A DNA stretch of 58,248 nucleotides, filler included, from Sphacelaria rigidula (Eukaryota): assembly GCA_964200075.2 (NCBI GenBank). It is 5 parts of 5 records of this genome, joined end to end, with 100 filler letters (N's around TTAATTAATTAA, not from the genome) between each part and the next. Parts side by side here need not be neighbours in the genome. Positions count along the whole stretch, not along the records: positions 23,342 to 34,910 come from CAXNAA020004767.1; 4 more parts are not named here. The stretch is one strand, 5' to 3'. Below are positions 7,760-56,561 of the stretch, one piece after another. The notes beneath the pieces were generated by a model, which did not search any database, was not told where the DNA came from, and worked only from the letters and a program-made list of their open reading frames with translations. Each line of letters opens with the position of its first letter. Positions within the stretch are counted from its first letter, which is position 1. Both the position numbers and the translations under genes were made by a program.

Positions 7760-8030
7760 GCACCCCAACCAGCAACCACGACACAACACATGCATGGGAG
7801 CGGGTGGCATGAGCTATATACTCGTCTGTGTTTTGTGTCAGCAGTGATGCAACACACGAGCTAGCCAGTTGGCCAGGTCGACAGGGTGGCACTCCGAGGT
7901 AAATCCTGTAGCTGCGGAGGTTTACCCGAAGTTGGGGCAAATACGTTCATGGAGATGAGACATATGTGAATCGGTATCAAATTCGACCGACCGGGTTGAG
8001 AAGGCTGCACCCTCCCCGCAACACCAAAAC
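7760..8030 (+). mobile_element. 5' fragment of an RTE-like LINE (leader hairpin, PAM2-like motif, N-terminal peptide)
   Basis: Homologous to the reverse complement of ~33180-33560. Shares ctgtgtt..gtgtca-loop-tgatgcaacacac. Translates to SEVNPVAAEVYP and, after a frameshift, HGDETYVNRYQIRPTGLRRLHP (cf. DGDEARVSKYQIWRTG...GRLHP). Confidence 0.75.
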
Positions 8031-9724
8031 TCGAGGCATACTTCCTCTGTCTCGTAAGTCTGGGCACTTACGGTTGTACGAGCCCTTAACGGTGTGACAA
8101 ATGCGATTTTCGATATTCTTATTGCACTCGTCGGCGTTTTCTTAGCTAAAACCAACATTCTTTCTACAACGTAGGTGGTTGACCCATGCAGCAGCAAAAA
8201 AAGTAGGTCGGTCCAAAAACGGCCATTTTTCGCTCGTTTTCCCAGGATAGCATGAGAGACCCGGGCACACGAAAAAACGCGAAAAATGGGCCAGAAAGTG
8301 AAAGTCGCGAAACAAACATTGATTTTGGACATGTCCGTGATATTAACCTACGCACGCCCCATCCAACATTTTATCAGCAAGTAATTGCTACTGCTCGACG
8401 TGAAAACGTCCATAATCGGTCAATGAGTGGTATATTTCGACATAATTTTAATGATTAAAACAAGATTTTCTTTCGTTATTTTTTCTTCATCAGCTTCGTC
8501 TGCGTTTAACCTCTCTAAAGAAACCAACCATAGGATGATCGTCAACGTTGAAATACCCAAACGATCAAACGCCCATAAGTGCTCAGACTTAAGAGACAAG
8601 AAGTATATCATGGCCGACGTGCCAAGGTCTGGTTCACGCCTGACACCCGAAATTGCGGTATGCCCTCTGCAGGCCCTACCCAATAGTCGCACACATGGTA
8701 TTATACCGGCTGCAATGAACATATGAAGCGGGTGGGATAGCCGGACTTTGGTTGAAAGTTATAGCGGTGGCACGAAGGGCGAAAAGGCACGTCGACCAAT
8801 CAGAGCCCTTCAAAATGCGCCGACATTGAAAACACCGAATCTAAACCCAATATTTACCCGATCACACAGACTTTGAATCACAGTGACCGCCATCAGCTCG
8901 GGAATATCGCAGGGGAACAGAGTTGAAAACCGTTACTATGAGATCAGGTTGTACTCCAGACCGTGATATATGGGTGATTTGGGTTTCGGCGTTGTCTGTA
9001 TTCCATCGATGATACGCACGGAAAACCCACGACGGTTTCCTTTATAGATGTCGTAGAAAGGCTCAGATCGTCCTCAAACTTGACAGTTCCGTACGTCATA
9101 GTGCTCTAAGTGAAAAATACCCATTGCTCACACTATTTCAAAGTCCCTCCGCTCTTTGGCGGCTGTCGGGAGCCTCAGCGTGAGGGCCCCCGTAAGGCAG
9201 TACAGAATGCCTCAAAATAAAAATGAAAAAGCCTGAAGCCGTGCGTCCCGGTTACTCGAAGGGACATTTGTACAAAGTTTGGTTGCGGAATCCGGTAACC
9301 TCGTGCAATTTTTTTAATATACCAAAAAAAGACGTTCTAAAGTGAAATCAAGTAGTCAGTACTTTGCACGTTTCAAGCTCAATTCGCACAAAAGCGCAAA
9401 ATCTCGTGCTGATAGTAGAGTCAGACCATGAAACGTTCCACACATGTATTCTGAGTCATCATGAAACTTTTCATAGGCGAGGTCTGTTGCTTTTCGATTA
9501 TTTCACCGTTTTTTGGGGGTCACATGGGACCCAGGTCCCCGAGAAACAATCCCGTGAACCCTGGGACCCCACATGAGGGGCGCTTGTGGGGAGAAATAAA
9601 AAGTTGTTCCTCGTACGTTTTGTGATGGGCCCACAGCAAATTTGTGTAAAATTCAGCATCTTGACCCCTGAAAACGGTGTGAAGTTTTGCGAATGAATAT
9701 TTTGCGGATGATGAACACGAAGCA

Positions 9725-9965
9725 GCCCGTCGATGAGAAGGAGAAACAAAACCAAAGTGAAGGCAGAGCATAGAGGAAGACGTAACTATAGATGAGGATC
9801 GCGCTGGGTCGCATGGAGGGGGGCTTAAAGTGGCAACCTACAACATCCGCACACTGTCCGTCACGGGAAAGAGCGAGGCTGGTTATGCTAAGGTAGCTGT
9901 GCGAAAGTGTCAAGCGGTACTCGTAATAATATGCGATGCCATCGGACTGCAGGAAACAAGACAGA
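9725..9965 (+). mobile_element. RTE-like LINE fragment, start of the APE endonuclease; probably continues 7760-8030
   Basis: LKVATYNIRTLSVTGK...AIGLQETR matches LKVATYNVRTLSLTGK...VIGLQETT of the LINE at ~32880-33005, including the APE N and E motifs. Confidence 0.85.
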
Positions 9966-18286: not shown

Positions 18287-19206
18287 NNNNNNNNNNNNNN
18301 NNNNNNNNNNNNNNNNNNNNNNNNNNNNNNNNNNNNNNNNNNNNNNNNNNNNNNNNNNNNNNNNNNNNNNNNNNNNNNNNNNNNNNNNNNNNNNNNNNNN
18401 NNNNNNNNNNNNNNNNNNNNNNNNNNNNNNNNNNNNNNNNNNNNNNNNNNNNNNNNNNNNNNNNNNNNNNNNNNNNNNNNNNNNNNNNNNNNNNNNNNNN
18501 NNNNNNNNNNNNNNNNNNNNNNNNNNNNNNNNNNNNNNNNNNNNNNNNNNNNNNNNNNNNNNNNNNNNNNNNNNNNNNNNNNNNNNNNNNNNNNNNNNNN
18601 NNNNNNNNNNNNNNNNNNNNNNNNNNNNNNNNNNNNNNNNNNNNNNNNNNNNNNNNNNNNNNNNNNNNNNNNNNNNNNNNNNNNNNNNNNNNNNNNNNNN
18701 NNNNNNNNNNNNNNNNNNNNNNNNNNNNNNNNNNNNNNNNNNNNNNNNNNNNNNNNNNNNNNNNNNNNNNNNNNNNNNNNNNNNNNNNNNNNNNNNNNNN
18801 NNNNNNNNNNNNNNNNNNNNNNNNNNNNNNNNNNNNNNNNNNNNNNNNNNNNNNNNNNNNNNNNNNNNNNNNNNNNNNNNNNNNNNNNNNNNNNNNNNNN
18901 NNNNNNNNNNNNNNNNNNNNNNNNNNNNNNNNNNNNNNNNNNNNNNNNNNNNNNNNNNNNNNNNNNNNNNNNNNNNNNNNNNNNNNNNNNNNNNNNNNNN
19001 NNNNNNNNNNNNNNNNNNNNNNNNNNNNNNNNNNNNNNNNNNNNNNNNNNNNNNNNNNNNNNNNNNNNNNNNNNNNNNNNNNNNNNNNNNNNNNNNNNNN
19101 NNNNNNNNNNNNNNNNNNNNNNNNNNNNNNNNNNNNNNNNNNNNNNNNNNNNNNNNNNNNNNNNNNNNNNNNNNNNNNNNNNNNNNNNNNNNNNNNNNNN
19201 NNNNNN
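18287..19206. other. Intra-scaffold assembly gap (920 N)
   Basis: Plain N run with no linker. Confidence 0.97.
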
Positions 19207-23341: not shown

Positions 23342-24004
23342 TTCCGCCTAGCTCTCTTTTGAGGCGTAAAACGACGTAAAAGCTCCAAAAGTACATTTTT
23401 CTGGGTTTTTATTTTTGTCTATTATAAGAAGCGGCCTAAAATACTGCACATACTTACAACCAATACGACTACCTTGTACTTCATACTCATACCGGTGACC
23501 TTGACGCCGATCCGTGGTATTTGGGGTCGGGTTCCATTAGATACCTACTGTCTGTAGCACGACTGTACTATATGGTAGATACGAGGACGAGGACGCGATC
23601 TTGCATGCATGTCCGATAAGAGGCATCATCCGCGGAATGTGATGGCTGATCGAGAAGGGTACAAGCCCTCTCTACACCAACGGCTTCGCTTGCTGTTGGG
23701 GGAACGCCAACTTTTGCTCAACGCCTATTTGGCTCTACCTGTACCTCTTGCTTGTGCGGAGATGGCTCGGACGCTCTGCTGGACCACTGTTGCTGTCTGT
23801 GTTGTCAAGAGTGAACCGGCGACTTGTGCAAAATTACACGAACCAGCGAACTCTGAACACGCGGATAGAGCACAAGTATCACCTAACCATTAAGCAGCAA
23901 CTTGATACTTCGTCTCGCACGTGATATGATGAGAATGGCTACTAACTCGTCACCCCTGGCACTTCCCTGTTCCGTGCTGGGGCTGCTGGGACTGAACAAC
24001 TCAC

Positions 24005-24168
24005 CGGTCCTTCTTCTTGATGGAGTTTTCCCAGCTCGCTAGATCAACAAGATACTCTTGCATATCTTGGGCGTTCTGACGGATCTGATTCTGTACCCGA
24101 AAAGCGGCTGCCGCCCCACCACCACATCCAGAAGTAGCCGAAGCGGCATGTTCATCCCGTCCGCCCAT
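24005..24168 (-). CDS. RPAP3: Exon 1 of an RPAP3-like (R2TP TPR co-chaperone) gene; remainder runs off the scaffold
   Basis: AFRVQNQIRQNAQDMQEYLVDLASWENSIKKKD resembles the conserved RPAP3 N-terminal helix (IELQLQVKQNAEELQDFMRDLENWEKDIKQKD). ATG at 24168; donor CG|gtgagt. Confidence 0.75.
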
Positions 24169-25299
24169 TGGAACCGCGGAGCACGTCAACCTGCAACGCC
24201 TATTTAGTTCGCGAAAAGGGCAGAGCAGACAGCGCAAAGTATATCCCGCGCCTGGAGGATTGTGACAATATTCAACGCGTGGCATATTTGGGCGTTGAAA
24301 AATTGTTTGGAAGATGACATAGGTAATCTTGCAGGGTCATCGTGTTCGCTCAGACAACGATCACCAAAAAAAGGTCGGCTCCCTGTCGATGTGGGGGTTG
24401 AGTAGATGCTAGGAATTTTTTATGATTGAGGAGTCGCTACACCTTTGAGTGAAGATAAATTTAAGCATATACTAAAGCGTAGTGCACCTCAACAAGCCTA
24501 CCTTTGACTCCGGCAAGCTTGTGTATAAGTGGGCTTTGTCGCGATCTGATTGGGTATCGGGAAAGCGCCTCGTCCTCTTGGCGACCAGCGGTAGCCGAAC
24601 GACGGCTGGACGAGAGAGCATACGGCTGACACCTGGCGGCGCCAACGTCGTGAGTCTTGCGGTTTGCTACAGGGGTTTGATCTCTGGGAAGATGCTGTGA
24701 TCAAATAGCGTACGCTATCTGTTCTGTATGGTCTGTCCTGCCCACGTGTGGGCCTTGGTACTCGTGGTGCGGAGGTGTGCTGGACTGACTGTGGTGGTGT
24801 ACTCAGTTAATAATCCGGCACTCTTGCACGATCCACCCTCATATTTGCAAGTTGTGGCGGGCTTGCTGCACTGTACTGGGTGCCTGTAGTGTTGAATGAG
24901 CAGTATTTGTCATACGTAGAGTGAGATTGTCACTGTGTGACAGGTTGAGGATCGCCACTTGCGAAAAGTACTGTCGGTACGGCCTGGGTACACCACAACT
25001 ATTCGGTTCATCTCGAGTTGAAACGCCACAACCGCTGCCTCTCTGAAGGCGGCGGTGTCGGGGCGGTAGAGCTAGCCGATAGCGTCGCCGTGGTGGCCAC
25101 GGCATCGGTATGTTACGCGCATGTCGCGTATCACGATGATTGCGCTGTGAAAACATAGCTGCTTTGGCTGTTAGCACATGTATGTGCGGGTTTTGGAGAT
25201 CTGATATGAATAGTCTAGTTTGATAAACCCATAGCAAGATTTTTTTGCACAAACTATTGTGAGTCAGTGCGCACGCCTAAAAGTTTTTTTTTTTTTGCG

Positions 25300-25430
25300 T
25301 TCACTCTTTGTGCATGTTCCGCCTTCCTGTTTTTCTTTGCTTTCCGTCATCGAGTGTTTGCTTTTTTTCATCTGGGGTATGTCCATCATGTGATCATAGC
25401 TGGATCCCTGGGGATCAGTTGATGTGCGAC
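25300..25430 (+). mobile_element. 3' UTR end fragment of the RTE-like LINE family
   Basis: gggtatgtccatcatgtgatcatagctggatccctggggatcagttga matches the reverse complement of ~28769-28820. Confidence 0.75.
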
Positions 25431-26339
25431 GGTTGTTTCCACTCCGACTCCCCAAATTCACGTTTGAAAAATAGTTGGTTCCAGTCTAGGAAACTATCGT
25501 ATTCCAACATTCGGAGGGCACCGATTTGAAACTCTACCAGCGCACACTTTGCCTTGGACACTGCTTATCCCCCTTGTTCGAGGCTTCTCGGTCTGACTTC
25601 GGTAGGTTTGCCTTTGGGTTTGACGAAACGAAGCATTAACAGTGGATTTGGGTAGCCGGATTAGGGAGTACCCCCTCTATTCTGGAGTAGCAGCCCCGAA
25701 AGTTAGCCTCGGTACGTGTCATGGAAATGTCCGCATTAATCTGTTTGGTTTCACGTGCCGTCGACTTATGCTCTTGCGTGTGAAATACTTTGCGCACGCC
25801 ACCTGCTGCGTGAAATACAGGCAACCAATCGGACGGGTCGGGAGCCGGTTCGTGGACAGATATTGTAGTTCGCTTGGGCTGCCCGCGGAGCGATAACAAA
25901 CGAGAGAGGGAGAGTGAACCGAGGTATGATGGTAGGTCAGTCACGCCAGGCTTGCGTGAGGACTCGTCTGGTCTGAAGGTCTGAAGAATTTACCCTGAAT
26001 GAGCACATACAATTAAAAATTTTGCCGTTACGGCGGGCACCTATGGTGCCTGAACTGCAAAATACGCATGCCACGATCAAATCGCACAGTTTGCACCATG
26101 GTAGGCTATGTCGTGAGTAGTCTATGGTTTAACTTTCATCGTACCACGTCTTGGCCACCCCTAGGCCATGTTCTTGCGATTCTCATGCTACTACTCGGGG
26201 TCGTGTGGATAGTGGCTTGATATCTTCTGTGCTATACTCTTGTTCTGTGGCCTTAACGTACCGTTTATCGTTGTTCAGGGCCCACGTCCGCCTCCTTCCT
26301 CCTCTCTCAGCACGCGAAATGGTATGAGGTGAGGCTCGG

Positions 26340-27620
26340 TTGACTCGTGATTCATGTATATACGAGGCACTAAAGTTGCATCATCACGTTCTGCCTAACC
26401 CCGCATGAAAACAACGACAGATTTGTCAACTTGAAGTGAAATGATAAGGAACTCTGCGCTTCGGTTGGTGCGTGTGGTCACCCTGGGTCAACTATTATTT
26501 ATCCATCGCCCCCGGCTCCTTGGATGAGTCATATCGAGATGGCACACTGATGGCGTGTATTTCGGACAGTGTACACTTATGCTGGAATGCAGCCGCTCTG
26601 GTAACAAGCACTGTGAGCTACATTTACTCAATCATGCACATGTTCACTACAAGTCCTTCCTCGATACCGTCCCTCGTCTGATCATTCCAGTTTCGTCGCG
26701 GCCAGTTGGAGGGTGCTGCTCGTTTCCTTGTGTTGAGCTCCCAGGCTGCGGGATCATCGCTTCGCTGGTCAAGAAATCACTCTCTCCTGCACAGCTCCCT
26801 CTCTAAAGCACGAGAGTAGTTTCCGAAGGGCACTCACTGTCTATAAAACCGCCAGCAGGTCGTGAGATTGTCCAGCAGCACACAAACAGGTATGATGAGG
26901 GATACCGCATGGGCATGCCGCCAACCCATAACACACAACTGTGCCTTTTCGTATGTTCATCATATTGCAGTCTCCGCATGTTGTCCACTTTTTGTTTGAA
27001 ACGTACTGCCTGCCCCGCTTAAAAACCTTGCTCCCGACCTGAGCCGCAACAGCTGGGAACCTTGGACATCACACATCAGTGTCGCTGACGTGTGCACTGT
27101 AGTGCACCGTATGTCAGATCCATACGAAGCTGGCGACTTCGTCGACGGCGGCCCACATCAGAGCTCTGCGTGCGAAGGCTACTACTGTCCTGTCTGATCC
27201 CCTACGCAATAAGGGATTGCCGTCACCCTCCATGAACAGGGTGTACACCGCGACTATTTGATCGAAGTGTAGTCGGTGCAATGACCAACCACTACATCTT
27301 ACATCTCACGACTGTCCTTTCGTTGAAGAGGGTCGATCATAGAGATGATGGTTGTTCTCAGCTCCAATCAAGAGATGCAGCACTTGGCATTTAGTTCGTT
27401 GATCGATTGTCGCATCAAATCAAATACGCCTCTACGACTCCAGCCGTGGCCACAAGAGAGACATACCAAAGGTATGTCAAAATTTACTCGCCGAAGGAAA
27501 CTTACGAGAGGAGAAAGTCCATCTAGGTGCATCCCTGGCATTTTGGTCTCAACGGGGAACACGGTCCAGCGCGCGTCGGTCGTCACCTCCAACCCGCCGA
27601 ATCCGGTACTTGTCTGATCC
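26340..27620 (-). pseudogene. Degenerate ISL2EU/Harbinger-like transposase (HTH plus DDE remnants)
   Basis: TGFGGLEV...LVSFLRRVNFDIPLVCLSCGHGWSRRGVFDLMRQSINEL fits the HTH of DDE_Tnp_4-type transposases. It is followed in order by LMCD, RRLQYDEHTKRHSCVLWVG/ACPCG, MDK and QVDKSVVV, with many stops and frameshifts. Confidence 0.5.
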
Positions 27621-28757
27621 GCATGGATCCGTTTCTTTGCTGGTTGAGCTTGATTCCCCGAACACAACCGTGGCATGCCTGGCGTCCGTCGGGGACAGAG
27701 GAGTATGGAGTCTACACGAGAAAAAGGCACTCTGGATCGGCCGTGTTTGGTATTTCTACCGCCCGCCAGAACGGTCAACGTTGGGTCGCTCTCTATCCGT
27801 GAAGCAGCCATTGCCCCAGGTCCGCAACTATGCATTCGCTCAGACGATTTCCCCAAGTTACCGTCTTGGCTCCCGTGCACGATTTACAAGAACCACCGAA
27901 GAATACCTTCACTGAAGATGATGCCGTCGCACACATCTCACATGGCGAACAAGACCCAACAGTGTAAAGGTGCCTCAATACATTGATGAAGTCGCACACA
28001 GCGATCAGGATTCTCCAACAGGCACCGTCGCCTCCGAGTGCCCGCGTAGGCATGTCACGAGCTCGCCGCACTCAGCATGCCCACGACGCTGAAATAACCA
28101 CATGACCGGTGGGATCTCTGCAGCACACGTGGAATAGTTATCGATGCGACAAGTGAGCATTCGCCATTTTACTTGGTATCATCCCGACTTGAAAATGTTT
28201 TATGTGTAGTTGGGTTGATATGATTTGTGTAGACTTCTTCACAAATAGCAAAGGTTTAGGTCCAGGTCCAAAGGCAAAGTCGATCCTGTACAGTAGCGAC
28301 ACACTTGCGGAAGCATTGTCGTGAGCTGTAGTGAGGGGCACGTTAGGACCAGGTGATGCAGGAGGACATTTCGGCACGGATGCGTGTGAGATCACGTGGT
28401 GTTGCAGTGCACACTCTTTAGTCGGTCGTTGCAGTATGGGGGTGTACATGAGCCGGGAAGTCGTGGGTTCGAATGCGAACGCGCACGTTTCGTAGCTAGA
28501 ATTACCTGCGTCGTTGAAAGCTTGATGGCCCAACCAGACACAGTAGCAAACAAGGCCAATTTTTGACGAGGGTCGACGCGGTGCGGGCGTGGTGATCCAG
28601 TCCGCGATACCAATATGCGAGGCAAGCTACTTACGGAGGGGCTCTTATATTTGCTGGTTCATTCGAGGGCCTGTCCCGTGAAAAGTGTTGAATGTGTCGA
28701 AACTTCGAATCTAGGCAGCACTTCGGTAGGAAGAGTGCCGCAGAGTTGTGTGAACGA

Positions 28758-31700
28758 TTAATTGATTGTCAACTGACCCTCCAGGGATCCAGCCGTGGTC
28801 ACATGATGGATGTACCCTAGACCAAACATAACTGGAACACTCGCCGAAGAAGAAGAAAGAAAAAGACAAGTAGAACAGAACGTGGTGGACGGAGACAAGA
28901 GAAGAGAAGGCAACTCACAGCAAAGAAAGGAATGGCCGGCCTCGGCCACATGGTTTCGGCAGGAAAGGTCCCTTGCGCAGAACCACACTCATACCCAGTC
29001 GAGGAAAGTAAAAGGCCGTGGACAAGGAAAATATTGCGGCTCATCTACTACAAACGTCCTATTTAGGAGAGTACCCTCGAATCTACGAAGAAACACAGTG
29101 AAGCGAGGTGCCGCACTGCTCTGCGATACACCGGCAGGAAACATCACACGATCCGAGGAAAGGATGTAGGTGAGGGAGAAGGAAACTACGAAAGTGAAGC
29201 CCAAAGAATTCAGGACAGCACAGTAGATACAGGGCAAAGGGCACATTCGACCACTGATGCGAGCTGACAGGATTCTTCGATTGGTGGTCCTCGATGCAAC
29301 ACCTCTCGTTTGTGACGGCGGTCCGATTCTCGTTTGTCCGCGCCTCGCCACGTTTGCTCAAACTCTTCCGCTCCTCTTTCGACTCCAACATGCCATTTGC
29401 CCATGTTCTTCGACGGAGTGACCCGAACAGCCCGTATTGCACGTAAGTCCTCGTGGAGGTGATCCTCCCATTGCCTGGCAGGGTCGCCCGCCTTGGGCCC
29501 TCGTGCGGTTTACCGTCCGTTTATCGTGATGCGTTTAGGGAGGCGTGTCTGCTTCTGCTGGACAAGGGCTCCCGCGAACCAGAGTTGACGTTGGCGGCTA
29601 GCCGTCTTGATGCGATCGCAGTTGGTCATCTCGAGCACTGCTCTGTACGAGAGAATCTAATAGCTATTTCGATCTTCCCCATTGATGGACGGTCCGCAGA
29701 CTGTCGAAGTCCTCAAAACTTAACGTCCACATTACACATCCATACAAGAGAGTTTCTACCACATCCGCTTGAAGCAGCCGGAACTTCAAGGATAGCTGAG
29801 CGTTTGGTCGATCGTAGAGTTGGGAGCTATATTCTCGGGTACGCGTCCACGTCGCGCTGATACGGCGGTCGATTTCGATGGATATTTTCGCATCTACGCT
29901 GATAGCACCACCAAGGTAGACGTACTTCCCCGTCTGCTTATACCGTTGACCGTGAGCTTTGATGTTGAGGGCGGCCTCCGTGGGACTGGGTACTGACCAA
30001 AGGCGCATGGACTTTGTCTTACTCTCGGAGACCGTCAGGCCGAATACCTGGTAGGTCACCACTATCACGGCCATCATTCGCGCAAGGCCTTCTGAGGTCC
30101 TCGAGACTGTGCCGGCGTCGTCCGCATAAAGTATTGCCCACACCGCGTGTCGCACCTTTTCCAGCGGTGTCTCTTCCAGGAGTTCATCACCGCCACCTTT
30201 TGGCGCATCATCTAGAAAAACCAAGTCTGGGACGATGACTGGGTCCGCCGCGAACCGCTGAACGATCATGTCGGCCAAGGCTGCTCTGAAGATGTTGAAC
30301 AACAGCGGGGACGAAACGCAACCTTGCCTGAGTCCCTGGCAGACGTGGAACCACATTGATAGTTCGCCATTATCTAGCTGAACCCGAGCTCGCATGCCGT
30401 CGTGAAATATACGGATGGTCGTTGTCACCCGCAGCGGGACTCCGAACCGAGCAAGCACTTCCCACAGAAGCGTGCGGTCTACAGAAGCGTACGGTCTACA
30501 GAAGCGTGCGGTCTGCAGATCAATGAAGCACATGTTTAGTGGGACGTTACTCGCCCGTCCCAACTCCTGAAGTTGGCGTACAACGAACATCATGCCTATG
30601 GCCGATCGTTAGCGCCTATCCACACTGCTCTTCCGGGAAGACATCTGTTTCCTCACAGAAACTGCCGAGTCTGTTGGGTACGTTATGGAGGTGAACCTGA
30701 GCAGCATATGCCACAAGTGAAATGCCTCTGTAGTTACCACATTCGGTTTTATCTTTTTTTTGTGCAGCACTTGAGCGTGACATCTTTCCATTCTTGCGGC
30801 ACCTCGCCAGATATCCAAACAGCAGAGATGATGCTGTGGAAGTGGTACAAAATCTCCGACGCCTCCCCGTTCAGTCCAAGCTTCAGAATTTCAGCAGGAA
30901 TACCACCCGGACCCGTTGCTTTGCCGTTCGACGTACAACACTGAGCGCCTGAAATATTCATTGCTCCGGATTTTTTTCTGGAGCCTACTCTTCGATAGAA
31001 CTCGAAAGTGCTAGCGTCGGTAGATGCTGGTACAAAAAACAGGCTGTCTTCCCCCCCCCCCAGTGCCCAAGTTAGTGTTACTTGGTGTTGACGGGCGATA
31101 CGAGGAGATACCCCGTTTACCATGAGGGTGTTATGGCCGTGATTCACAGTTATTCGGCTCTAGTGCAATGAGTAGGCAGAATTAAAAGAACAAAAACGTG
31201 TACATTTCTTCACAAATACGATCGGGACAGGCTCGATCGACCGACAATACAGAAGAGTCGGAATCTGGGGTGAAATGTGGCAGGACCCCCGGTGACCTAT
31301 CACCCCGTAAGTCACTCAACATTGAGTACATATGTTTTTTTCTCTGGAATGCGGAGCGGATACAAGTATCTCTTAGATCCCCAATGTGATGGACGGTGGC
31401 GAGCGAAAAAACGTATCAAAACCGTCAATTGCGAAGAAATTGCCAATATGAACAGTTCAGGCGCCCAGTACTGTAGCTCTCAGAGCCTCCTCATTTTCAC
31501 TTCATTTTCACTTGGGCTTGGCGGGTCTCTCAGTGACAGCGCTATCGGTCGTTGTGCAATCTTCTCGATGACGGTTCGGTCGATAGTTGCCGGTATGGCG
31601 TTCAGCAATGTGAAGAACTACCGTTTCCATCTCTCACTGATCAAACCCGTCCCGTAGTATATTGCCGCCCTCATCTCGAATGTACTGCTCACTCTCGATC

Positions 31701-33650
31701 TGTCTTCGAGACAGTCTCCACCCTCTGTTGATATGTCTGTACCATCCTCTCATGTCCCCTGCTCGAGTATACTCATCGAAATCTATAGAGTACACATCCA
31801 TATATTTGTCCACCCCAACTTGGATCACCTCTTTCACCCTTTTGCACTCTCGTAGTGTGCGCCATGCAAGTTTATCTCGTGATGGTCCCAGTCGCGCCGT
31901 TGATCTCGCTCTTTCCCTCTCATTCCAGGCTTGTTCGAACTTCGTTCGGATGGCATCATCCTCGAACCACCCCGGTATACGTGGCTTCGGGTAAGACAGG
32001 GTGCCACCTTTTCAGCGGCACTCAAGAGTACGTCGGCAAAGTTCATAGCCTGCAAACTATCTGTATCGCCAATTATACTCTGTATGCTCGCTGATGATGA
32101 GCTGAGTGAGATGCTCACGTCTGTCGGGGTCAGATATTATTGCCCGTCTGTCAATCGGTGTACGCACAATTGGGATTCATGTAGGTATATTGTGTGCGAA
32201 GCGACCAAGGAGCTGCACTGAGGCGCACACGATGTTGTGGTCAGAGTCCGGCGAGTTGGGGGGTTGAAGGTGGACAGTGACATGGCCAACAACCCTGCGG
32301 TGATCTTGCCGTGCGAGGATGTAATCAACGCGTTTTTTGTCCGCGGGGCGATTTGCAATGCCGTTGAGCGTACGCTAGGTGCTTTCCTTGGGGGTGAAAA
32401 AGAAGGTGTTGACCAGGGCAAGCCTGTTGTCCCCTGCAAATTGCAGTAGAGAGGTGCCGTTACTGTCGTTGGATCGGGAGTCCCGGCCGTATGCCCCCAC
32501 AACTTTACATTCCTCGACGCCTATTCGTACCCCAGTTCTCGCGTTAGCGTCCATTCAAATTAACAGGTGACGTTTGTGGGGAATACGGTTCACAATGCTG
32601 TCTAATTCAGTCCAGAACACACCTCTTTCTTCTCTTGACCGTGGAATGTAGGAGCATATGCAACTACAAACGTTGCAGCGTTTGATTAACCTGCGAGGTT
32701 GAAAGTAATGGACGCGAGGCGTTCGCTGATGAGTGTCTGAATCCACGTCGCCTCGCTGGTGATCGACTCCTTGGCCGCCACCCCAACCCCATGTTGTCCA
32801 GTCCTTACCTTGCTCCCCTCCGCCCCGCAACGGAAGACACGATATCCCGCCGCACAAAATTCGGTTCGACCTGGTCTCGTCGTTTCCTGTAGTCCGATGA
32901 CGTCATATCCGACTTCCTGACATTTTTGCCGGACCACCTCAGCATGGCCAACTCCGTTCTTCCCCGTGAGGGACAATGTACGGACGTTATAGGTCGCCAC
33001 TTTGAGCTCCCCAGTATGCGACCTAGCTTTAGCCTTCTCAATATTCACGCGTATTTTCTCTTTGCTCTGCTCTCCTTCTTGGTCTGTTTCGCCTTCTGAT
33101 TTTACGGGCGACATTTTTCTTTGTTTCGTTTTTTCTTTGGCACGTCTGTCGCGGTACTTGCCTTGCTTGTTTGTCACGTGGTGAGGGTGCAGCCTTCCCA
33201 TCCCGCGTCAACCGCTATCTCCAGTCCGCCAAATCTGGTACTTACTGACACGTGCCTCATCTCCATCATACGGGGTAAGTGTTGGGTTGGGTTTCCTCCT
33301 TCCATCAAGGAAAAAAAAAATAACTCCATCAACGTGCTTCCCGTGACAGTGTCCCAACGCCGGGTAAAACGCTGCAGCTGCGGGATTCAATTTGGTTCTC
33401 AATCGAGGGTAGAACTTCGAAGCTGCAGGATTGAGTCTGGAGGTCAGCACTGCCTGCATGACCCACCACCTAGACTGTGTGTTGCATCACCGTTGACACG
33501 AAACACAGGCAAGCCAGTAGGTCAAGTTACCGTCCCCTACTTATTGATTGTGTTGTCGGTGGGGTTAGCCTACCCCGACACGACTAACCCCGATCGGGTG
33601 GCGGTCGGGGTGACGAATTCAATCCTGGTATCTGCAGAGATGGGGTTTTC
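28758..33650 (-). mobile_element. Near full-length, decayed RTE-like non-LTR retrotransposon (5' leader, N-terminal peptide, APE endonuclease, reverse transcriptase, 3' UTR)
   Basis: APE motifs VATYNVRTL and IGLQET (~32880-33000). RT motifs NGKATGP..IPAE.LK, CFIDLQ, GLRQGCVSSPLLFNI, LYADD and YLG (29664-30930). Short caatcaat-type tail. Multiple stops and frameshifts. Confidence 0.93.
30936..31473. mobile_element. Tc1/mariner(pogo)-type MITE inserted in the LINE
   Basis: TIRs caacactgagcgcctgaaatattca and (revcomp) cagtactgggcgcctgaactgttca, flanked by TA on both sides. Removing it restores the LINE peptide EALRATSNGKATGP. Confidence 0.88.
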
Positions 33651-34910
33651 CCCAGAATAGTACACGGTGTAATACAGTTGAGTACAGCACCGAGCGTTAC
33701 GTAGGTTTCTTTACCTGACTTCGCCGTCAACCCTGTTGATTAAGTTGCTGAAACCACAATGCCAATCCGTGGCTATTGCACTCCCAAACGGTATACCAGT
33801 GAGTAGTTGGTGACCCCAGGCATACGCACACCTGTAGTTTGCTGTGCTTCATCACCGTAACACGCCTCATCTACCAATCTGCCGGGTGCTGCTCGCGTAG
33901 GTGGGCGGAGCCAACCCAGCGGACACACAGGTGGTACAGTTGCGGATAGTACCGATTATTTTTCTGTCTCTACCGAGTGTTGCGAACAAGATGTCGTCAC
34001 CATAGTAGTGTTAGTGGATGCTCTGCAAGGGGGGTTGTACTCGTATGGTAGCGAAAAATACCTCCGAGTACAGTAGTACTCGACAAGGGGCGGGGTTGGG
34101 AGCGTAGTGTATTCGACTGTAGTGTCTTCAGGCGGGGCTTAGTGCATGAATTTTGAGCATTTGTTGAGATTGATAGCACATGATGTACTATTGTGCTCTA
34201 CTATGAGAGTGTACGATGCTCACGGTGATTACAAATCAACTTAAACCCCGTTAGTTCAGGCGGCGGCGTGAAGTGTAGCTGTATATGAGCTCAATCTGCC
34301 ATCAATATTTCTCCTCATTCTGTGTGTCGGGGCGGGGGGGGAAGGGGGGGTGAGAATAGCTCGGGGTGATTCGTTGCGCAATTGATTCGCGTCTTTTGTT
34401 GTCCTAGACGCAGTAGCAGCTGTCGTATTCGACCTTTTCCGAGCGCGAGGTGCCGTTGATGCGTGTTGGCGGTACCCTCGGATCATTAACGGCCAAGCCA
34501 CCAGTATCAGCAATTGATTTTCACCGCTTCACCTCGAGTCGAGCACACGATATTATCGCTGCAGCGGGACGAGGCGTTCGCGCATGTTTTTGCTGCCGAT
34601 GTGGTGGTGCAATTAGTGTGCCATTCGATATTTCCGTCTGACCAACGCTTGTGGCAGGCTACCTCCACTTTGAAGTAGTTCTTGCAAAAACTGTACTAGA
34701 ATGGACTCCGGTGGGTGGGATCGAGTCGTGTGTCCATTCCTTCTCCTCTTCGAATTAACTACAACAACTGCTACGAGTCACCAAAACCGTTCGGGGGCGA
34801 AATATCATGACCCGCAGCAAAAATAAAAATAAAAGAGCAATGGACTAGGAAAGGTATACCTTCTCGTTTTTTGCCCAAGAAAGGTACGAAAAATGACCAA
34901 AAACGCGAAA

Positions 34911-37962: not shown

Positions 37963-38224
37963 TTTTGTACGCATGTATATTTTTTATCGACAGCACAGGA
38001 TGTGAATGTCCGGTGGAGACTGCGTCTGTACGCGTATCGCAAGGGTTTATGCCGCCGGGCATGACTACCATCATGGTGGAAGGCGGGGCAGTGCTCCGAT
38101 TATCTGACAGACATGATGCTTCATATTTTGCAAGACCGTTCACTGCACTCAGCTGCCGATTCCCCCTGGATCTCACCATTCCTGCCATCACTACCGTTTA
38201 TCGTTCGCCACTTTAAAACAACAG

Positions 38225-38851
38225 GTACGAAGAGGGTGGACACTTCAAGCCGCACAAGGATACGGAGAACGAAAGCGGGATGTTCGGCACTTTGGTTGTG
38301 CAGCTGCCGACCGTCATGGGCCACGAGGGCGGAACCCTGCTTTTTCGACACCAGGGTGAACAGAAGGTGTTTGCCTGGCAAAACCCGGGTGGCGCATGCG
38401 GGACTCTGAATCAGTCAGGAGGCCATACTAGTGTTACTGACCACACCTCGGGTGTACGCGTCCCCGTTCGATACGCCGCATTCTACGGTGACTGCGAGCA
38501 CGAACTACAGCCGATTACGCGTGGGGTGCGCCTGTGTCTACTATACAACCTGGTACGTACCACACCTGGCCCGCCCCCCGTAGCCGCCGTCGGGCAAGCT
38601 GGATCTCCGGCACAACTCCGTCTCTCTGCCGCGGTGCAGGCTTGGGGTTCCTCTTCGGACACCATTAGCAAAGTTGTGCTGCCTCTGGAACACGAATACA
38701 CCGAAGCGAATCTTTCCTTTGGCGGTCTCAAGGGGCGAGACCAAGCCATGGTAGACGTTCTGCGTATGTGCCCGGAGCTTGACCTGCACCTAGCATTGGT
38801 GGTAAAACATGTCAGCGGAACTGCTGAGGAAGACTACGGCTACTGTAGCAG
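38225..38851 (+). CDS. 2OG-Fe(II) oxygenase-domain protein, catalytic exon; upstream exons not located
   Basis: YEEGGHFKPHKDTE..GMFGTLVVQLP..HEGG...AAFYGDCEHELQPITRGVRLCLLYNL contains HxD, the distal H and the R of a 2OG-Fe(II) dioxygenase, then LEHEYTEANLSFGGLKGRD. Acceptor caacag|G, donor AG|gtacga. Confidence 0.9.
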
Positions 38852-39141
38852 GTACGATGCTGGTTGCTTTCCGCGGCCGTGCTCATTCATTACTTACTAT
38901 CGCTTCTGTCATGGGATTCTGCAGTCCAACGCACCGGTAAAGTTAGTGGTGCCAAAAGCTCAATAGTTTCAGCACAGCAAGAGGCTACCAACGCTCTGAA
39001 AACCTCCATGTCCAGAATTTGCCAAGCTTTGGTCCTGTCGTACGTGAACGGGTGGCGCCTCCGGTGCAGACAACTTTCACGCCTAGCATCTTATCGTGTA
39101 CCTTCAACGTAAAACTACACTCTATCGACAAAAACTCCCAG

Positions 39142-46679: not shown

Positions 46680-47521
46680 GGCGTTCTCGGCACGCCAGGC
46701 TTGCGCGATGTTTCGAGTACCCGCGCGGCCGGGGGGGGGGACATTGTTGATACTTTCGCTCTGTGTTACTCTTTCGTATCATCCCTGCAAGAGAGAAATG
46801 CGACTGCAGCCCCATTTTAGTGTTGAACCCCAAAAATTAAAATCGGCTCATATTTGGGTTACAGTAGGTTGTATCAATACTAAAGCGGTTCACTCGAGAT
46901 GGGCCTTGGGCTACTTGGGTAGGGTACCAGATGAGAAGGTGTTTGTGATCGTGCGCGAACACCGTTCCCATCACACTCTGTTCTGGAAACCTTCTCTCTT
47001 AATCCCAACTGTGGAACTTTCAACGTGGATTTACATAGCCATCTGGCTCGGCTGAATCGCACTGGATACAGAACTGGTCCCCGAACCCTTCCTCTTAGTA
47101 CTTTGCTCTGAACCATACAGGCTCCTTTAGTGCCGTGCAGAGTATCTTACTCGAACATTCTGTACTGTACGCTACGGTACTAAGCTTTACTCTACACTGC
47201 TGTACTGTACTGTACTGTACGAGGTCACGTACGACTGTCTCCTGTGGAGTGCAAGAGATCAGTGTGGTCACAGCGTACATGACACGTAATGCGGCATCCC
47301 CACAAAGTATTGATAATCGTCTTGTGGACTCAAGCAGGGCACTCCTATCTCCCACCCGAAATCCATTTTTTTCCACCAACATATGAGCAAATCGCTGCTC
47401 GAAGAAAAAATGAAAGTTGCTCCGAAAGAAATTCATGTCCCATCCTCTCCGTGTCCAATCCCTTCCTGTCGCCGTGTCCAATCCCTTCCTGTCGCCCCTC
47501 CCCCTCCCCTCGCTTCCCTAG

Positions 47522-47877
47522 ACGGCACCTGTGCACCTCCTCGAAAGACCGCACGTGCCTACTGTGGGACCTGGAGCTGGGGGTCCCAGTAGTGCGCTGG
47601 TCAGGCCATGCGGACGCAGTGGGGGCTGTTGCAGCATCGCGAAAACCCGGAGCGTGGTTGCCCACGGCCGCCCCCGGCGGTGCGTTTGTGATCAGCGGCG
47701 CCGCCGATCGCACGCTTCAACGGTGGGACGTGCCCAGCAAAGCCGTTGCTGTGTTGGAAGCGGAGGCGAGGGATTCCAGGTCGACTGTGGAGGCTGCTGG
47801 AGTGGCGAGGATGCTGGAGGCAGGAGGGACTGGAGAAGGCGAGGGAGAGGAGGATGCGGGGGCGCGAAGGAAGAAAG
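47522..47877 (+). CDS. UTP13: UTP13/TBL3 (SSU processome UTP-B WD40 protein), first visible exon; 5' exons off-scaffold
   Basis: HLCTSSKDRTCLLWD...GHADAVGAVA...VISGAADRTLQRWD WD40 repeats. Acceptor ccctag|A, donor G|gtccat. Confidence 0.85.
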
Positions 47878-48103
47878 GTCCATGATGTTACGTTCTTGTT
47901 CGTCCGTAAACATGCCTGTCGTGTGATCGTTACAGGACAGAATTAATTGCATATCCCGAGATGAAAGCTGCCGCACACGTTTTACTTTGATTTCGGACGA
48001 GAGCGTGGAGAGATTGCTCAATGATCCAGTAAACTGTACACAACATAGCGACGTTAACGTCTTCACGCAAGAACGTTGTTTTCTGGCACAAACTTTCACC
48101 AAT

Positions 48104-51225: not shown

Positions 51226-51403
51226 ACACGAATAGACGCACGCACTCAACGGCAAGAAAGCATGCATGCATACATCAACAGTGTGTGTTGCTAGTCGATA
51301 GTCGAACGGTGTACGTACTACACACCCACCACACCACCTTCTGTGCTGCCGGCTTGAACAACCTACCCCCACCCTAACCCCAGCCCCATTTCCCAATACA
51401 CAG

Positions 51404-51736
51404 GGCCACACGGCTTCGGTCCTGAGCGTGACGTTTATCAGCGCTGGCGCGCAAGTCATGTCGGGCGGCGCCGATGGACTAGTGAAGGTGTGGACCGTAA
51501 GGTCGGACGAATGCGAAGCGACCCTCGACGCCCACACCGACAAGATTTGGGCGCTGACCACCGCGCGTACACCTCCGCCCAAGAGGGTCGGGAAAGTGGG
51601 AGGGCAGGAGGAAGGGCGGGAAGGAGAAGGGGAAGGACTGGAGGATGGCGCGGGGCCTAACGCGGGTGTGGTGGTGGTGAGCGGCGGTGCTGATTCGGTG
51701 ATCAACGTTTGGAAAGACGTGACTGCGCGAGAAGAG
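51404..51736 (+). CDS. UTP13: UTP13/TBL3 exon
   Basis: GHTASVLSVTF...SGGADGLVKVW...CEATLDAHTDKIWAL...SGGADSVINVWKDVT; cacag|GGC and GAG|gtaaga. Confidence 0.92.
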
Positions 51737-52836
51737 GTAAGAAGAATGACAAATTGCCATCTGCGCTAACCTTTTTGGGGCGTGATGTGTACGGGGCGAG
51801 GAGGTGAGGAGTTGTGAAAAGTTACTGGGGAGTGTAGCTGTCTGACGAGAAACAGAAGATACCGGGCTCATGGATGAATGAGAAAACATGGAAACTGTGG
51901 ATTCATTCAACTATCTTGCCTGCTGATCTTGTACCAACCCCCGTTGGTGGTGGTGGTGATGGTGGTGGTGGTTGGCTTACTCATGCATGTTTTTTCTCGG
52001 GTACATACATTTTGTGCCCAAGGAGGGATTACTGGAGCATCATGGATCACTTGATATGCGACAATCAATATAAATTGAATCAAAAGTACACTCGTATCGC
52101 CCCCCCCCCCCGTGAGCCTGGTCTGGCGAGAACCTGACGTGCTCCGTCCCGGCTTTGTAGGGATGTGAGGTCAATGGTCCTCATACTACGGCGTGCAACA
52201 TCATGAGTACCCCAATCCCCCCCCTACATGGGGTGAGCGTCGGTTGGCAACGGTGCTGTATAACACGCCACTCACTATGCAAGCTAGGCGATCAGCTTAT
52301 CGACTTTTTCTGCGCGCTTGCGTTTTGGTTTTGCGGTAACCATTATGGTGGTCGAGCTACATCATCCTGTATCAGGTGGGACAAAATCATTTCCGCACAA
52401 GAGGGATGATCATACTACGTAGTGTTAGATGGTCAGACGCCCATGAGGCAGTGTTAAATCCGTGGCTGTCGGTGGGAGTGGCAATACCACAAAATGAAGT
52501 CACTCATTGGAGGCTGTCATCCATATGCAAGGTAATCAATACGCGTCGGGCCGAACAATCTCAGCAGAATTTAAGTCACCCTTCATGCGACTCGTCGTAC
52601 ACACAACGGCGCTTCGCGTTTGGTGATTGATTGTGAGCCTGGTTCGGCGAAAATCTGGCGTGCTACGTCTCAACTTTGCAGGGATACGAGGTCAACGGTC
52701 AAATGAGTACGGCATTCAAGGTCATGAGTAACCCCCCCCCCCCCCTACCCATCCCGTCCTCTCCGCCGCTGCCGGTGCTGCTGCCTGCACCACGGGTAAA
52801 CACAATCGACGGCTAATAATCTGACTGACGCGAAAG

Positions 52837-54187: not shown

Positions 54188-54446
54188 GTACGTGGCGTGA
54201 GGCAGGCTGATGACGGGGTACGTAATAGCTCAGTTTATTATTTTTTAATTTTTGTTGAAAATGCCGGAACGCTCTTTACATGGAGACGCCACTACCGTTA
54301 TCTGTTGAAGTGCTGCGTGTTTGTTGGCCGGCGGTGATTCGACAACTAACAAGAACGCCTCACACCCGCATGTGTTTGTTGCCGTCGTGATACCAAGAAT
54401 TGTCTTGCTCTTTGATGTTTTCCTCTCTGTTTTTGGTTTTGCTCAG

Positions 54447-56561
54447 GGCTGCTCGGAGCTTGTGCGGATTCTCTTACCGTACTCCGAGCGACACTTTCAA
54501 CGGCTAGACCGGCTGCTGCAGTCGTCCTACCTTGTCGAGCACACGTTGGCATCCATGAACATGCTGATCGGCACGGAAGAACACGAGAAGGGCAGTTTCG
54601 AGGCCAAGGGCGCCGCTGTCCGCAGCAACGGTGCGGAGACGAAATCGACACTTCTTATTGCCCGGGAATTGAAACGCCTCCGTGACGGTCGAAGCTTGTC
54701 GGCTCCGGCTAAGAAGGACTACTCCGAGGATGTAGGGAGTATCGACAGTGGGTCTGAAAAGGACGCGGATGAAGGGTTGCGCTCCTCACGCGTGGAGGCT
54801 GAAAGCGAGATGATCGGCGACCGGGTGGTGTTTAACGTGAAGGCCGACGCGAGCGCAGCGAGCAAGGGGATGGGGAGCGATGTGGAGCGTGACAGTAGCG
54901 ATAGCGAGAGTGAAAACGGTGTTGGTAGAGATGTCGAGGACGATGATGTCGATATGGGAGATGTGACGTCCTCAGGCATTATGGATCGCGGGGTTAGGAG
55001 GGGGACAGGAGCGGGCGAAGAGGAAGGCGGGCAGGGCAGTGGCGAAGGGTCGGTTGAAAAACCGAAGAAAAAAAAGAAGAGGAAAAAGCGGGCGGCGACA
55101 GGAGATGAAGCACTACCCACGCCCACGTCAGGTCTTGTTGAGAAGCAGAAACTAGTGAAGGAGGCACCGGGAAAAGAGGGGACTGATCGGGAAACCGAAG
55201 GCAACGAGGGAGAGGGTGGCGGGTTGATCGAGAAACCGAGAAAGAAGACCAAAAAGCGAGGCGCGGCGGCGGCAGGAGATGAAACACCGCCTCCGGCAAG
55301 GCTAGACCCTGCAAAACCGAAGCAACAAGAGGGGGAGACGCATCGAAAAGTGGAGGCTGCTGTGGATGCAGGGAGGCAGGGGGGAAAGGGCGACGGGTTG
55401 ATCGAAGAAAAGAAGAATGAGAAGAGGAGGAAACGAGGACGGGGGATGGCAGCGGCGGCTGCCACCGAAGATGGAATTCCGTCTGTGCCTACTGTATCCC
55501 CCGTTGAACAGAAGACGGTAGAGGTTTCAACACCAACAGGCGAGGCAGCAGGGGAGAAAGAGGGTAGGCACAGGGAGAATGGTAGCATTTCGACCGGAGA
55601 AACGAAAAGTGAGAAGAGGAGGAGGCGAGGGCGAGGAAAAATAGCGGCACCGGTGGCGGAGAGTGAAATCTCGCCCACGTCCACCGCCCCCCCAGCAGAA
55701 GAAAATACAGTGGAGGAGCCGGAAACAATGAGAAAAGGTGAAGCTGCTGTGGAGAAAGTGCGGGGGCAAAAGGGAATTGGCGACGGGTCGACTCGACAAA
55801 CGAAAATCGAGGAGAGGAAGAAACGAGGGTGGGGGAAAGCAGCAGCGCCGGTAGCGGAAGGGGAAATTTCGCCCACGCCTACCTCATCCCCTGTGACGGG
55901 GAAGACAGTGGACGAGGCGGAATCGATGAGAAAAAGCGAAGCTTCTGGGGAGAAGGAGGTGAGGCAAAAAGGTATTGGCGACGAGTCGACTGGGGGAACG
56001 AAAAGTGGGAAAAGGAGGAAGCGACGGCGGGGGAAATTAGTGGCCGCGGCAGAAGATGAAGTTCCGCCCATGCACACGGGAAGCCCTGTAAAAACGCGTA
56101 AAGTAGAGGTGGAGACACCTGAAGGGGGAGCTGCTGGGGAGAAACGGGGGAAGAAAGGAAATGTCATGCTAACACCCACGGCAGGTCCTGTAGGAGAAAG
56201 GAAACTAGAGGGGGAGAAAACGAAAGAGGAGGGAGTTACTGGAGAGAAAGAAAGGCCAAAGGGCGATGAGATGCCGAGTGGTGGTGATGGTGCTCCTGCT
56301 GCTGCTGCTTGCAAGAAGCGGAAGAAAAGAAGGAAAAGTGCGTCTGCGTGTGAGGCGTCCAGTCTTGTGGCAGGGGGAGACACCAGTAGCCGGGGAGAGT
56401 TAACGGCGGGTTTGGGGGCTGACATGGCCAAGGGTAGGGGTTTGGAGAAGGCGGAGGTAGAGGTGGAGAGGGGTATCGTTGAACAGAAAGGGGACAAAGA
56501 GGGGGGTGTCGTTGAAGGCAGGAAGAAAACGAGGAATCGGCGAAAGTCGGCCGTGGTGTAG
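54447..56561 (+). CDS. UTP13: UTP13/TBL3 terminal exon: end of the Utp13 domain plus a ~660-aa charged repetitive tail
   Basis: gctcag|GGC acceptor; LLPYSERHFQRLDRLLQSSYLVEHTL is the Utp13 C-terminal signature; open frame to TAG at 56559-56561. Confidence 0.85.
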   Translation, partial: GCSELVRILLPYSERHFQRLDRLLQSSYLVEHTLASMNMLIGTEEHEKGSFEAKGAAVRSNGAETKSTLLIARELKRLRDGRSLSAPAKKDYSEDVGSIDSGSEKDADEGLRSSRVEAESEMIGDRVVFNVKADASAASKGMGSDVERDSSDSESENGVGRDVEDDDVDMGDVTSSGIMDRGVRRGTGAGEEEGGQGSGEGSVEKPKKKKKRKKRAATGDEALPTPTSGLVEKQKLVKEAPGKEGTDRETEGNEGEGGGLIEKPRKKTKKRGAAAAGDETPPPARLDPAKPKQQEGETHRKVEAAVDAGRQGGKGDGLIEEKKNEKRRKRGRGMAAAAATEDGIPSVPTVSPVEQKTVEVSTPTGEAAGEKEGRHRENGSISTGETKSEKRRRRGRGKIAAPVAESEISPTSTAPPAEENTVEEPETMRKGEAAVEKVRGQKGIGDGSTRQTKIEERKKRGWGKAAAPVAEGEISPTPTSSPVTGKTVDEAESMRKSEASGEKEVRQKGIGDESTGGTKSGKRRKRRRGKLVAAAEDEVPPMHTGSPVKTRKVEVETPEGGAAGEKRGKKGNVMLTPTAGPVGERKLEGEKTKEEGVTGEKERPKGDEMPSGGDGAPAAAACKKRKKRRKSASACEASSLVAGGDTSSRGELTAGLGADMAKGRGLEKAEVEVERGIVEQKGDKEGGVVEGRKKTRNRRKSAVV

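Follow-up and report, generated by a model that had tools for sequence, protein, structure and literature searches.

The DNA analysed here, called the window, is a 58,248-nt stretch (filler included) from Sphacelaria rigidula (NCBI GenBank assembly GCA_964200075.2). It joins five parts of five records of this genome end to end, with 100 filler letters between each part and the next, and positions 23,342 to 34,910 come from CAXNAA020004767.1. The minus strand of that part holds a decayed copy of a long interspersed nuclear element (LINE) whose single open reading frame (ORF) encodes an apurinic/apyrimidinic-type endonuclease (APE) and a reverse transcriptase (RT). The frame opens with two tandem units that resemble PAM2, the motif that poly(A)-binding protein (PABP) recognises through its MLLE domain. 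The motif is coding, lies in one frame with APE-RT, and is conserved across subfamilies of the element while its neighbours vary. The explanation favoured here is that the APE-RT protein is headed by a PAM2-type motif that would dock the MLLE domain of the host PABP, and on the sequence evidence we give this full explanation a probability of about 0.55.

The N-terminal peptide of the LINE copy

The ATG at 33459-33457 on the minus strand opens the peptide MQAVLTSRLNPAASKFYPRLRTKLNPAAAAFYP, which contains two 15-residue tandem units, each with the core LNPxAxxFxP (Table 1). An in-frame stop lies 9 codons upstream of this ATG, and the Met recurs at the same place in relatives, as an internal M in P0095 and as MMGF or MVLVVMGF in subfamily B. 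A scan with the strict pattern LNPxAxxFxP found only the two units in all six frames of the window, compared with 0 matches in 200 shuffles. A looser ELM-like pattern gave 3 matches in the window against about 2 expected, so that what is exceptional is the strict form, together with the arrangement in tandem. The preliminary description of this DNA had reported two tandem PAM2-like motifs opened by this ATG and proposed a Pfam scan. The Pfam PAM2 model (PF07145) scores the window peptide at 21.9 bits with two stretches summed, above the whole-protein cut-off of 20, and the translation, the strict scan and Pfam agree on the two motifs.

In the ATG frame a Lys/Arg-rich stretch comes next, followed by a match to Pfam Exo_endo_phos (28.5 bits against a cut-off of 24.5) that begins at residue 71 of the ORF 33207-32689; further APE pieces lie in other frames. 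Exactly one stop, the TGA at 33210-33208, falls between the Met and residue 257. The proposed frame into APE with a single TGA therefore holds up to residue 257, but many frameshifts and stops follow beyond 32686. The TGA had been read as a plausible decayed Arg codon (CGA>TGA), and this reading is supported by the relatives' proteins, which have Arg at the column. Subfamily A, to which the window copy belongs, has 11 relatives; Arg is present in all nine that reach the column, and the other two were frameshifted earlier.

Two private changes distinguish the window peptide from its family. Both units had been described as lacking the Glu usual before the Phe. This is true of the window copy, but the missing Glu of unit 1 is private to it. 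At position 33417 (minus strand) the window has A where most family contigs have G, which changes Lys15 to Glu. G accounts for a depth of 5176.6 out of 5677.7 in X1 (44 contigs) and 2790.9 out of 3074.2 in X3 (45 contigs), X1, X3, X5 and X7 being labels of the contig sets. The family majority of Glu before the unit 1 Phe indicates that the ancestral unit 1 had the canonical EF. The second change is a 63-nt insertion at 33261-33323, which makes residues 46-66 of the window peptide (VIFFFLDGRRKPNPTLTPYDG) foreign to the LINE family; these residues are absent from the relatives in the alignment. Contigs with a joint 33260>33324, which skips the 63 nt with 8 letters shared, number 6 in X1, 7 in X3, 2 in X5 and 1 in X7. 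Compared with its flanks, 33269-33319 has about 40 times the depth, and on the plus strand the insertion finishes with an A run. The inserted sequence is the tail of a different poly(A)-ended repeat of very high copy number and is in frame by chance. A poly(A)-ended retroposon, possibly a short interspersed nuclear element, is therefore also present in great abundance in the genome.

The motif in relatives and its conservation

The 257-residue read-through, with X at the TGA, was used as a phmmer query against 1.84 billion protein representatives and returned 303 matches. A profile search with the N-terminal alignment gave 195 matches, of which 120 are listed, and two word-index searches contributed further relatives. 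Regular expressions of our own sorted 126 predicted proteins into four subfamilies, which have the motif near the initiator Met; in subfamily C it follows MG directly, and in A, B and D it lies 2-6 residues in. All 11 relatives in subfamily A, ten of them tabulated, carry the tandem with the same spacing, and their units read SRLNPAA.EF.P and TKLNPAA..FYP. The other subfamilies have one motif each: FKLNPDAVEFFP in subfamily B, with the N-terminus MGFKLNPDAVEFFP; the Trp-type MGLNPNAPAWTP in subfamily C; and CQLNPQVRPFVP, of the form LNPxVxxFxP, in subfamily D, with the N-terminus MALAVHCQLNPQVRPFVP. In the alignments the one motif that subfamilies B, C and D have falls on unit 2, which indicates that subfamily A gained an extra N-terminal copy. 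A second conserved block, VSKxQIR...GRRGxGRL(N/H)P (window 33351-33211, minus strand), lies between the motif and the basic stretch and is common to subfamilies A, B and D and partly to C. An ESM Atlas look-up of one full-length relative, P0157, led to generic APE-RT clusters without useful taxa.

The motif and the APE signature occur in one predicted ORF in 67 of the 126 proteins (A, 1/10; B, 22/44; C, 7/8; D, 37/64), which agrees with the earlier proposal that the peptide is fused to APE-RT. P0287, at 761 aa the longest of these, matches P0157 over residues 1-727 and so reaches into the RT. Subfamilies B and D share about 44% identity across 730 aa. They fall on separate, well-supported branches of an APE tree of 42 segments; these were drawn, no more than 14 per class, from the 92 segments whose aligned length was 200 residues or more.

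The two units of the window copy differ at 15 of 45 nt. The six motif codons show 4 synonymous and 0 non-synonymous differences, and the nine other codons show 0 synonymous and 6 non-synonymous differences (Fisher p = 0.028). This distribution is what selection on the peptide would leave. Identity across subfamilies in the N-terminal region is 23-40%. In the cross-subfamily alignments the motif Leu is the only invariant column, and the motif Pro residues form the only nearly invariant ones. Conserved in the majority motifs are L, N, P, A (replaced by V in D), F (replaced by W in C) and P, with variation at the positions in between. The motif residues are thus the best-conserved columns of the N-terminal region across subfamilies, as would be expected from the suggestion that they are conserved above their neighbours.

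The idea that the likeness to PAM2 is a coincidence was weighed against these data. The region might be conserved as an internal promoter or a 5' RNA structure, or it might not be selected at all. LINE 5' ends carry internal promoters. Most of the sequences compared are dead copies of few masters, so that conservation within a subfamily is no sign of selection, and the looser pattern is not enriched in the window. However, the motif codons differ only synonymously between the units, the motif is retained between subfamilies of such low identity, and the open frame is maintained into the APE. Coincidence is therefore very improbable, and we are highly confident that the LINE protein has a coding, conserved N-terminal motif.

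The decayed copy and the rest of the window

The relative P0157 (1163 aa) has Pfam matches to Exo_endo_phos at residues 87-338 and RVT_1 at 652-931 (106.8 bits). In a tblastn search its residues 1-1163 are colinear on 33249..29306, in several frames. The window copy is full-length but dead, with the 63-nt foreign insertion, the TGA and several later frameshifts. Contigs from public runs that hold this stretch come to about 1,900 pieces per DNA run at a likeness of at least 80%. The contig depth is at the single-copy level from 33626 on, and this fall places the 5' end of the element there; contigs of X5 and X7, which may be RNA sets, cover the unique flank too. The 5' untranslated region (UTR) is partly alignable with positions 7760-7880 of a second element in the window.

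The 3' end was placed from an isolated fragment at 25330-25422 and the translations of two relatives, P0008 and P0073. The likeness between the two 3' ends in the window runs out at ...CAGTTGA, at about 28766, and no A run follows, in what is a small sample. The fragment is on the plus strand, is 76% alike to the end of the LINE 3' UTR, and is likely a 5'-truncated copy. In the P0008 and P0073 translations the PAM2 units and the basic stretch run straight on into the 3' UTR region (window counterparts 33459-33100 and 28990-28766, minus strand), and these two look like internally deleted, non-autonomous derivatives that retain both LINE ends. Inside the window LINE, about 0.45 kb at 31405-30931 (minus strand) is without a counterpart in P0157 and is probably another insertion into the dead copy.

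Table 1. Features of the LINE copy and of the second element, in window positions
Feature	Positions	Strand	Basis or remark
Decayed full-length single-ORF APE-RT LINE, ~4.86 kb	28766..33625	-	tblastn, repeat depth, 3' similarity end
5' UTR	33460..33625	-	high-copy contig depth to ~33625
LINE ORF start codon	33457..33459	-	Met kept at same place in relatives
PAM2-like unit 1 (SRLNPAASKFYPRLR)	33397..33441	-	core LNPAASKFYP 33435-33406; translation, Pfam, pattern scan
PAM2-like unit 2 (TKLNPAAAAFYPALG)	33352..33396	-	core LNPAAAAFYP 33390-33361; translation, Pfam, pattern scan
Rest of conserved N-terminal region (GHCHGKHVDG ... VSKYQIWRTGDSG), insertion excluded	33211..33351	-	block common to subfamilies
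Private 63-nt insertion, flanked by 8-nt duplication (CTCCATCA)	33261..33323	+	contig joint 33260>33324
In-frame TGA, decayed Arg codon	33208..33210	-	R in all 9 subfamily-A relatives reaching column
Lys/Arg-rich region between N-terminal peptide and APE	32998..33207	-	translation; RKKRLARKGRRRARPERRR-like in relatives
APE-type endonuclease domain, with stops and frameshifts	32190..32997	-	Pfam PF03372 28.5 bits; tblastn
RT domain	29682..30773	-	tblastn of P0157 residues 648-1007
3' UTR, without poly(A) tail	28766..29305	-	similarity end; P0008/P0073 translations
Second element 5' end, more diverged, decayed, one degenerate unit (SEVNPVAAEVYP)	7826..8034	+	blastn, alignment

The second element is 70.6% identical to the 5' region of the LINE over 102 nt by blastn. 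Its basic/APE start was located by tblastn at 9686-9964 (plus strand), and about 1.6 kb lies between the 5' peptide region and this start. The preliminary description had looked to a copy of the motif at 7893-7928 for the Glu before Phe. The Glu is present there, but Val replaces both the Leu and the Phe, and the copy belongs to this other decayed element.

Elsewhere in the window, a 2OG-Fe(II) oxygenase-like ORF at 38217-38963 (plus strand, Pfam) is a piece of a host gene. WD40/Utp13 exon-like ORFs (Pfam) at 47283-47882, 51302-51766 and 54309-56558 (plus strand) spread over about 9 kb, and they look like an intron-bearing nuclear gene. Nine N runs, masked or unresolved, lie between 11572 and 46679 (18287-19206 is one), and paired 44-N runs 12 nt apart occur at five places.

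Candidate docking of the LINE protein to PABP

The available part of PMC7356810 gives the PAM2 consensus as LNxxAxEFxP, or LNxxAxx[F/W], and the likeness reported earlier fits this as well. According to the same text, Leu and Phe/Trp fill two pockets of MLLE, Asn stabilises a turn, and Ala faces the surface and must be small. Leu3, Asn4, Ala7, Phe/Trp10 and Pro12 of the consensus are all present in the two window units and in the majority motif of each of subfamilies A, B and C. Subfamilies A, B and C satisfy all the published structural rules, and D fails at Ala7. Pfam PAM2 scores P0021 at 20.0 bits, with a cut-off of 20. The AlphaFold2 model of P0192 gives residues 1-67 a predicted local distance difference test value of about 30-35 and is without secondary structure there, in a model that is poor as a whole (mean 53.5), which gives it little weight as a sign of disorder. 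A complex prediction of window residues 1-45 with a stand-in MLLE domain (metagenome contig L051, not the host's) scored 0.31 against a mark of 0.34, with controls at 0.00-0.02, a result that leans neither towards binding nor away from it. A phmmer search of the 45-residue peptide against PDB chains of at least 20 residues gave 0 matches at E <=10, as expected for a short motif. We did not detect a PABP or MLLE gene by Pfam in 46 of the 60 window ORFs of at least 130 aa; the other 14 overlap the LINE. From the residues it shares with PAM2, binding of the motif to the MLLE domain of the host cytoplasmic PABP appears reasonably likely.

The preliminary description had suggested that the element encodes its own PABP-docking peptide, for capture of its mRNA 3' end in cis or for control of translation termination or stability, and the sequence evidence supports this in part. 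The proposed explanation is as follows. A high-copy LINE would encode one protein that runs from the initiator Met through a PAM2-type LNPxAxx[F/W]xP motif, the second block and the basic stretch to APE and RT. The motif, single in three subfamilies and tandem in that of the window, would dock the MLLE domain of the host cytoplasmic PABP. Because it emerges from the ribosome ahead of the rest of the protein, it could hold the nascent enzyme on the PABP that sits on the tail of the mRNA under translation. Such a tether would place the enzyme near the 3' UTR, which the RT must use, and this would give cis preference. Competition of the motif with deadenylase adaptors for MLLE may also make the RNA more stable or shield it from deadenylation.

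Several observations count against this explanation. Val stands at the Ala position in subfamily D, the largest set listed, in which 61 of 64 motifs fit the relaxed pattern only; a residue bulkier than Ala at this place is described as sterically highly unfavourable in the LARP4B-MLLE structure (PMC7356810, available part). Pfam PAM2 scores subfamily B at 11.6-12.7 bits, under the cut-off of 20, and has no match in subfamilies C and D; P0008, P0002, P0027, P0116 and P0045 gave none. The genomic 3' end of the LINE shows no poly(A) tail at the two 3' ends in the window, so that any 3'-end capture would rely on a tail added to the transcript. The predicted N-termini of the distant lineages P0031, P0055, P0076, P0138 and P0140 have no motif. 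No predicted protein of at least 1100 aa carries the motif: P0157, P0191, P0201, P0168 and P0208 (1090-1165 aa) all start downstream of it. When proteins of at least 1162 aa were searched with P0153 residues 1-70, the only match was P0157, which starts 30 residues further in, and no longer protein that shares this N-terminus has the motif.

The last two observations, along with the TGA that divides the motif from the APE in the window copy, would suit a peptide made as a separate short upstream ORF, or a functional start downstream, with an active enzyme that lacks the motif. RTE elements have a small first ORF. However, 67 predictions, the longest of 761 aa, join the motif to APE without a change of frame and so argue against a separate ORF, as do the frame that is kept across subfamilies despite indels and the Arg at the TGA column in 9/9 relatives reaching it. 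The first M of the full-length predictions sits where other copies have V (VSKQQ, VGLLNP), and other shortened predictions likewise have their first M for V or L (VARARS, LGTKLNP). The gene caller evidently allows GTG and TTG starts. In the APE tree, P0157 is the nearest neighbour of the motif-bearing P0192, and P0160 that of the motif-bearing P0153. Because the first M replaces V and the short-start proteins neighbour motif-bearing ones, the motif-less full-length predictions are probably an artefact of alternative-start calling, and a biological reason for them is less likely. We regard a separate short ORF or a downstream functional start as improbable.

A second possibility is that the motif is real and selected but that its partner is another MLLE-type protein, or an unrelated factor of import, stability or ribonucleoprotein assembly. 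Subfamily D points this way, because it keeps L, N, P, F and P with a Val that is unfavourable for MLLE. So does the Pro at motif position 5, which is conserved here and free in the PAM2 consensus (PMC7356810, available part), and MLLE domains occur outside PABP too, according to the entry for PMC9249222. On the other hand, the conserved positions are the five that define PAM2 (L, N, A, F/W and P), the F-to-W change of subfamily C is a known tolerated variant (PMC7356810, available part), and the window peptide reaches the Pfam PAM2 cut-off. A different partner is unlikely, though less so than a separate short ORF.

The architecture of the LINE fits membership in the RTE group. Like RTE-type LINEs, it has a single ORF with an N-terminal APE and then RT, no ORF1 protein, short UTRs and a tail-less 3' end, and no Cys-rich C-terminal domain was seen in P0157, as in RTE-type LINEs. 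To our knowledge, a PAM2-like N-terminus is not known for RTE elements. A full-text literature search, with subscription journals mostly outside its scope, did not find a retrotransposon protein, from a LINE or otherwise, described as having PAM2. Docking of a LINE to PABP is already known, as are carriers of PAM2, and the combination of the two appears to be new.

The LINE motif is as long as the PAM2 of host proteins and shares its defining residues (L, N, A, F or W, P). The Trp variant of subfamily C and the near-N-terminal position recall the PAM2w of LARP4/LARP4B, and the two adjacent motifs recall eRF3 (PMC7356810, available part). Unlike in host proteins, the motif sits on a retrotransposon endonuclease-RT, 2-8 residues after the Met, Pro5 is fixed, one subfamily has Val for Ala, and binding is predicted from sequence.

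For human L1 ORF2p, published work already proposes that a LINE enzyme achieves cis preference by co-translational docking to PABP (PMC7617806, available part). The element concerned, PIE (PABPC interacting and essential element), comprises residues 272-297, in the linker that follows the endonuclease, and its predicted binding site on PABPC1 is RRM1 rather than MLLE. The PIE model, published in 2025 from structure prediction and mutants, has PABP captured co-translationally on the enzyme's own mRNA, with cis preference and 3'-end positioning as the outcome (same source). In PMC7617806 the words PAM2 and MLLE each have 0 occurrences. As in L1, the N-terminal part of the LINE enzyme has its own PABP-docking element, here a putative one. 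Unlike PIE, the motif precedes the APE and is of the PAM2 type, so that position and description set the two apart. L1 also encodes an ORF1 protein and ends, in the genome, in a poly(A) tail; both are absent from the window LINE. PAM2-type docking would be an independent route to the role proposed for PIE, and it may matter more without an ORF1 protein.

More tentatively, and with less confidence than in docking itself, ORF1-less, stringent-type algal LINEs might have adopted the host PAM2 code at the tip of APE-RT, where it could grab PABP once about 40 residues emerge. Together with PIE this would be convergent and perhaps a general requirement of cis preference, and the duplication in A, the Trp in C and the Val in D might represent affinity tuning or an arms race with the host.

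The way in which a LINE enzyme recognises its own mRNA has long been a question. If the proposed explanation is true, a second, unrelated LINE group would use the PAM2-MLLE code, and docking to PABP would be a convergent strategy. The element would also offer a simple test system: a 12-residue peptide with known knock-out rules, natural tandem, Trp and Val variants, and a partner domain of about 75 residues. A retrotransposon would then join the PAM2 carriers, which have so far been host factors of translation and mRNA decay.

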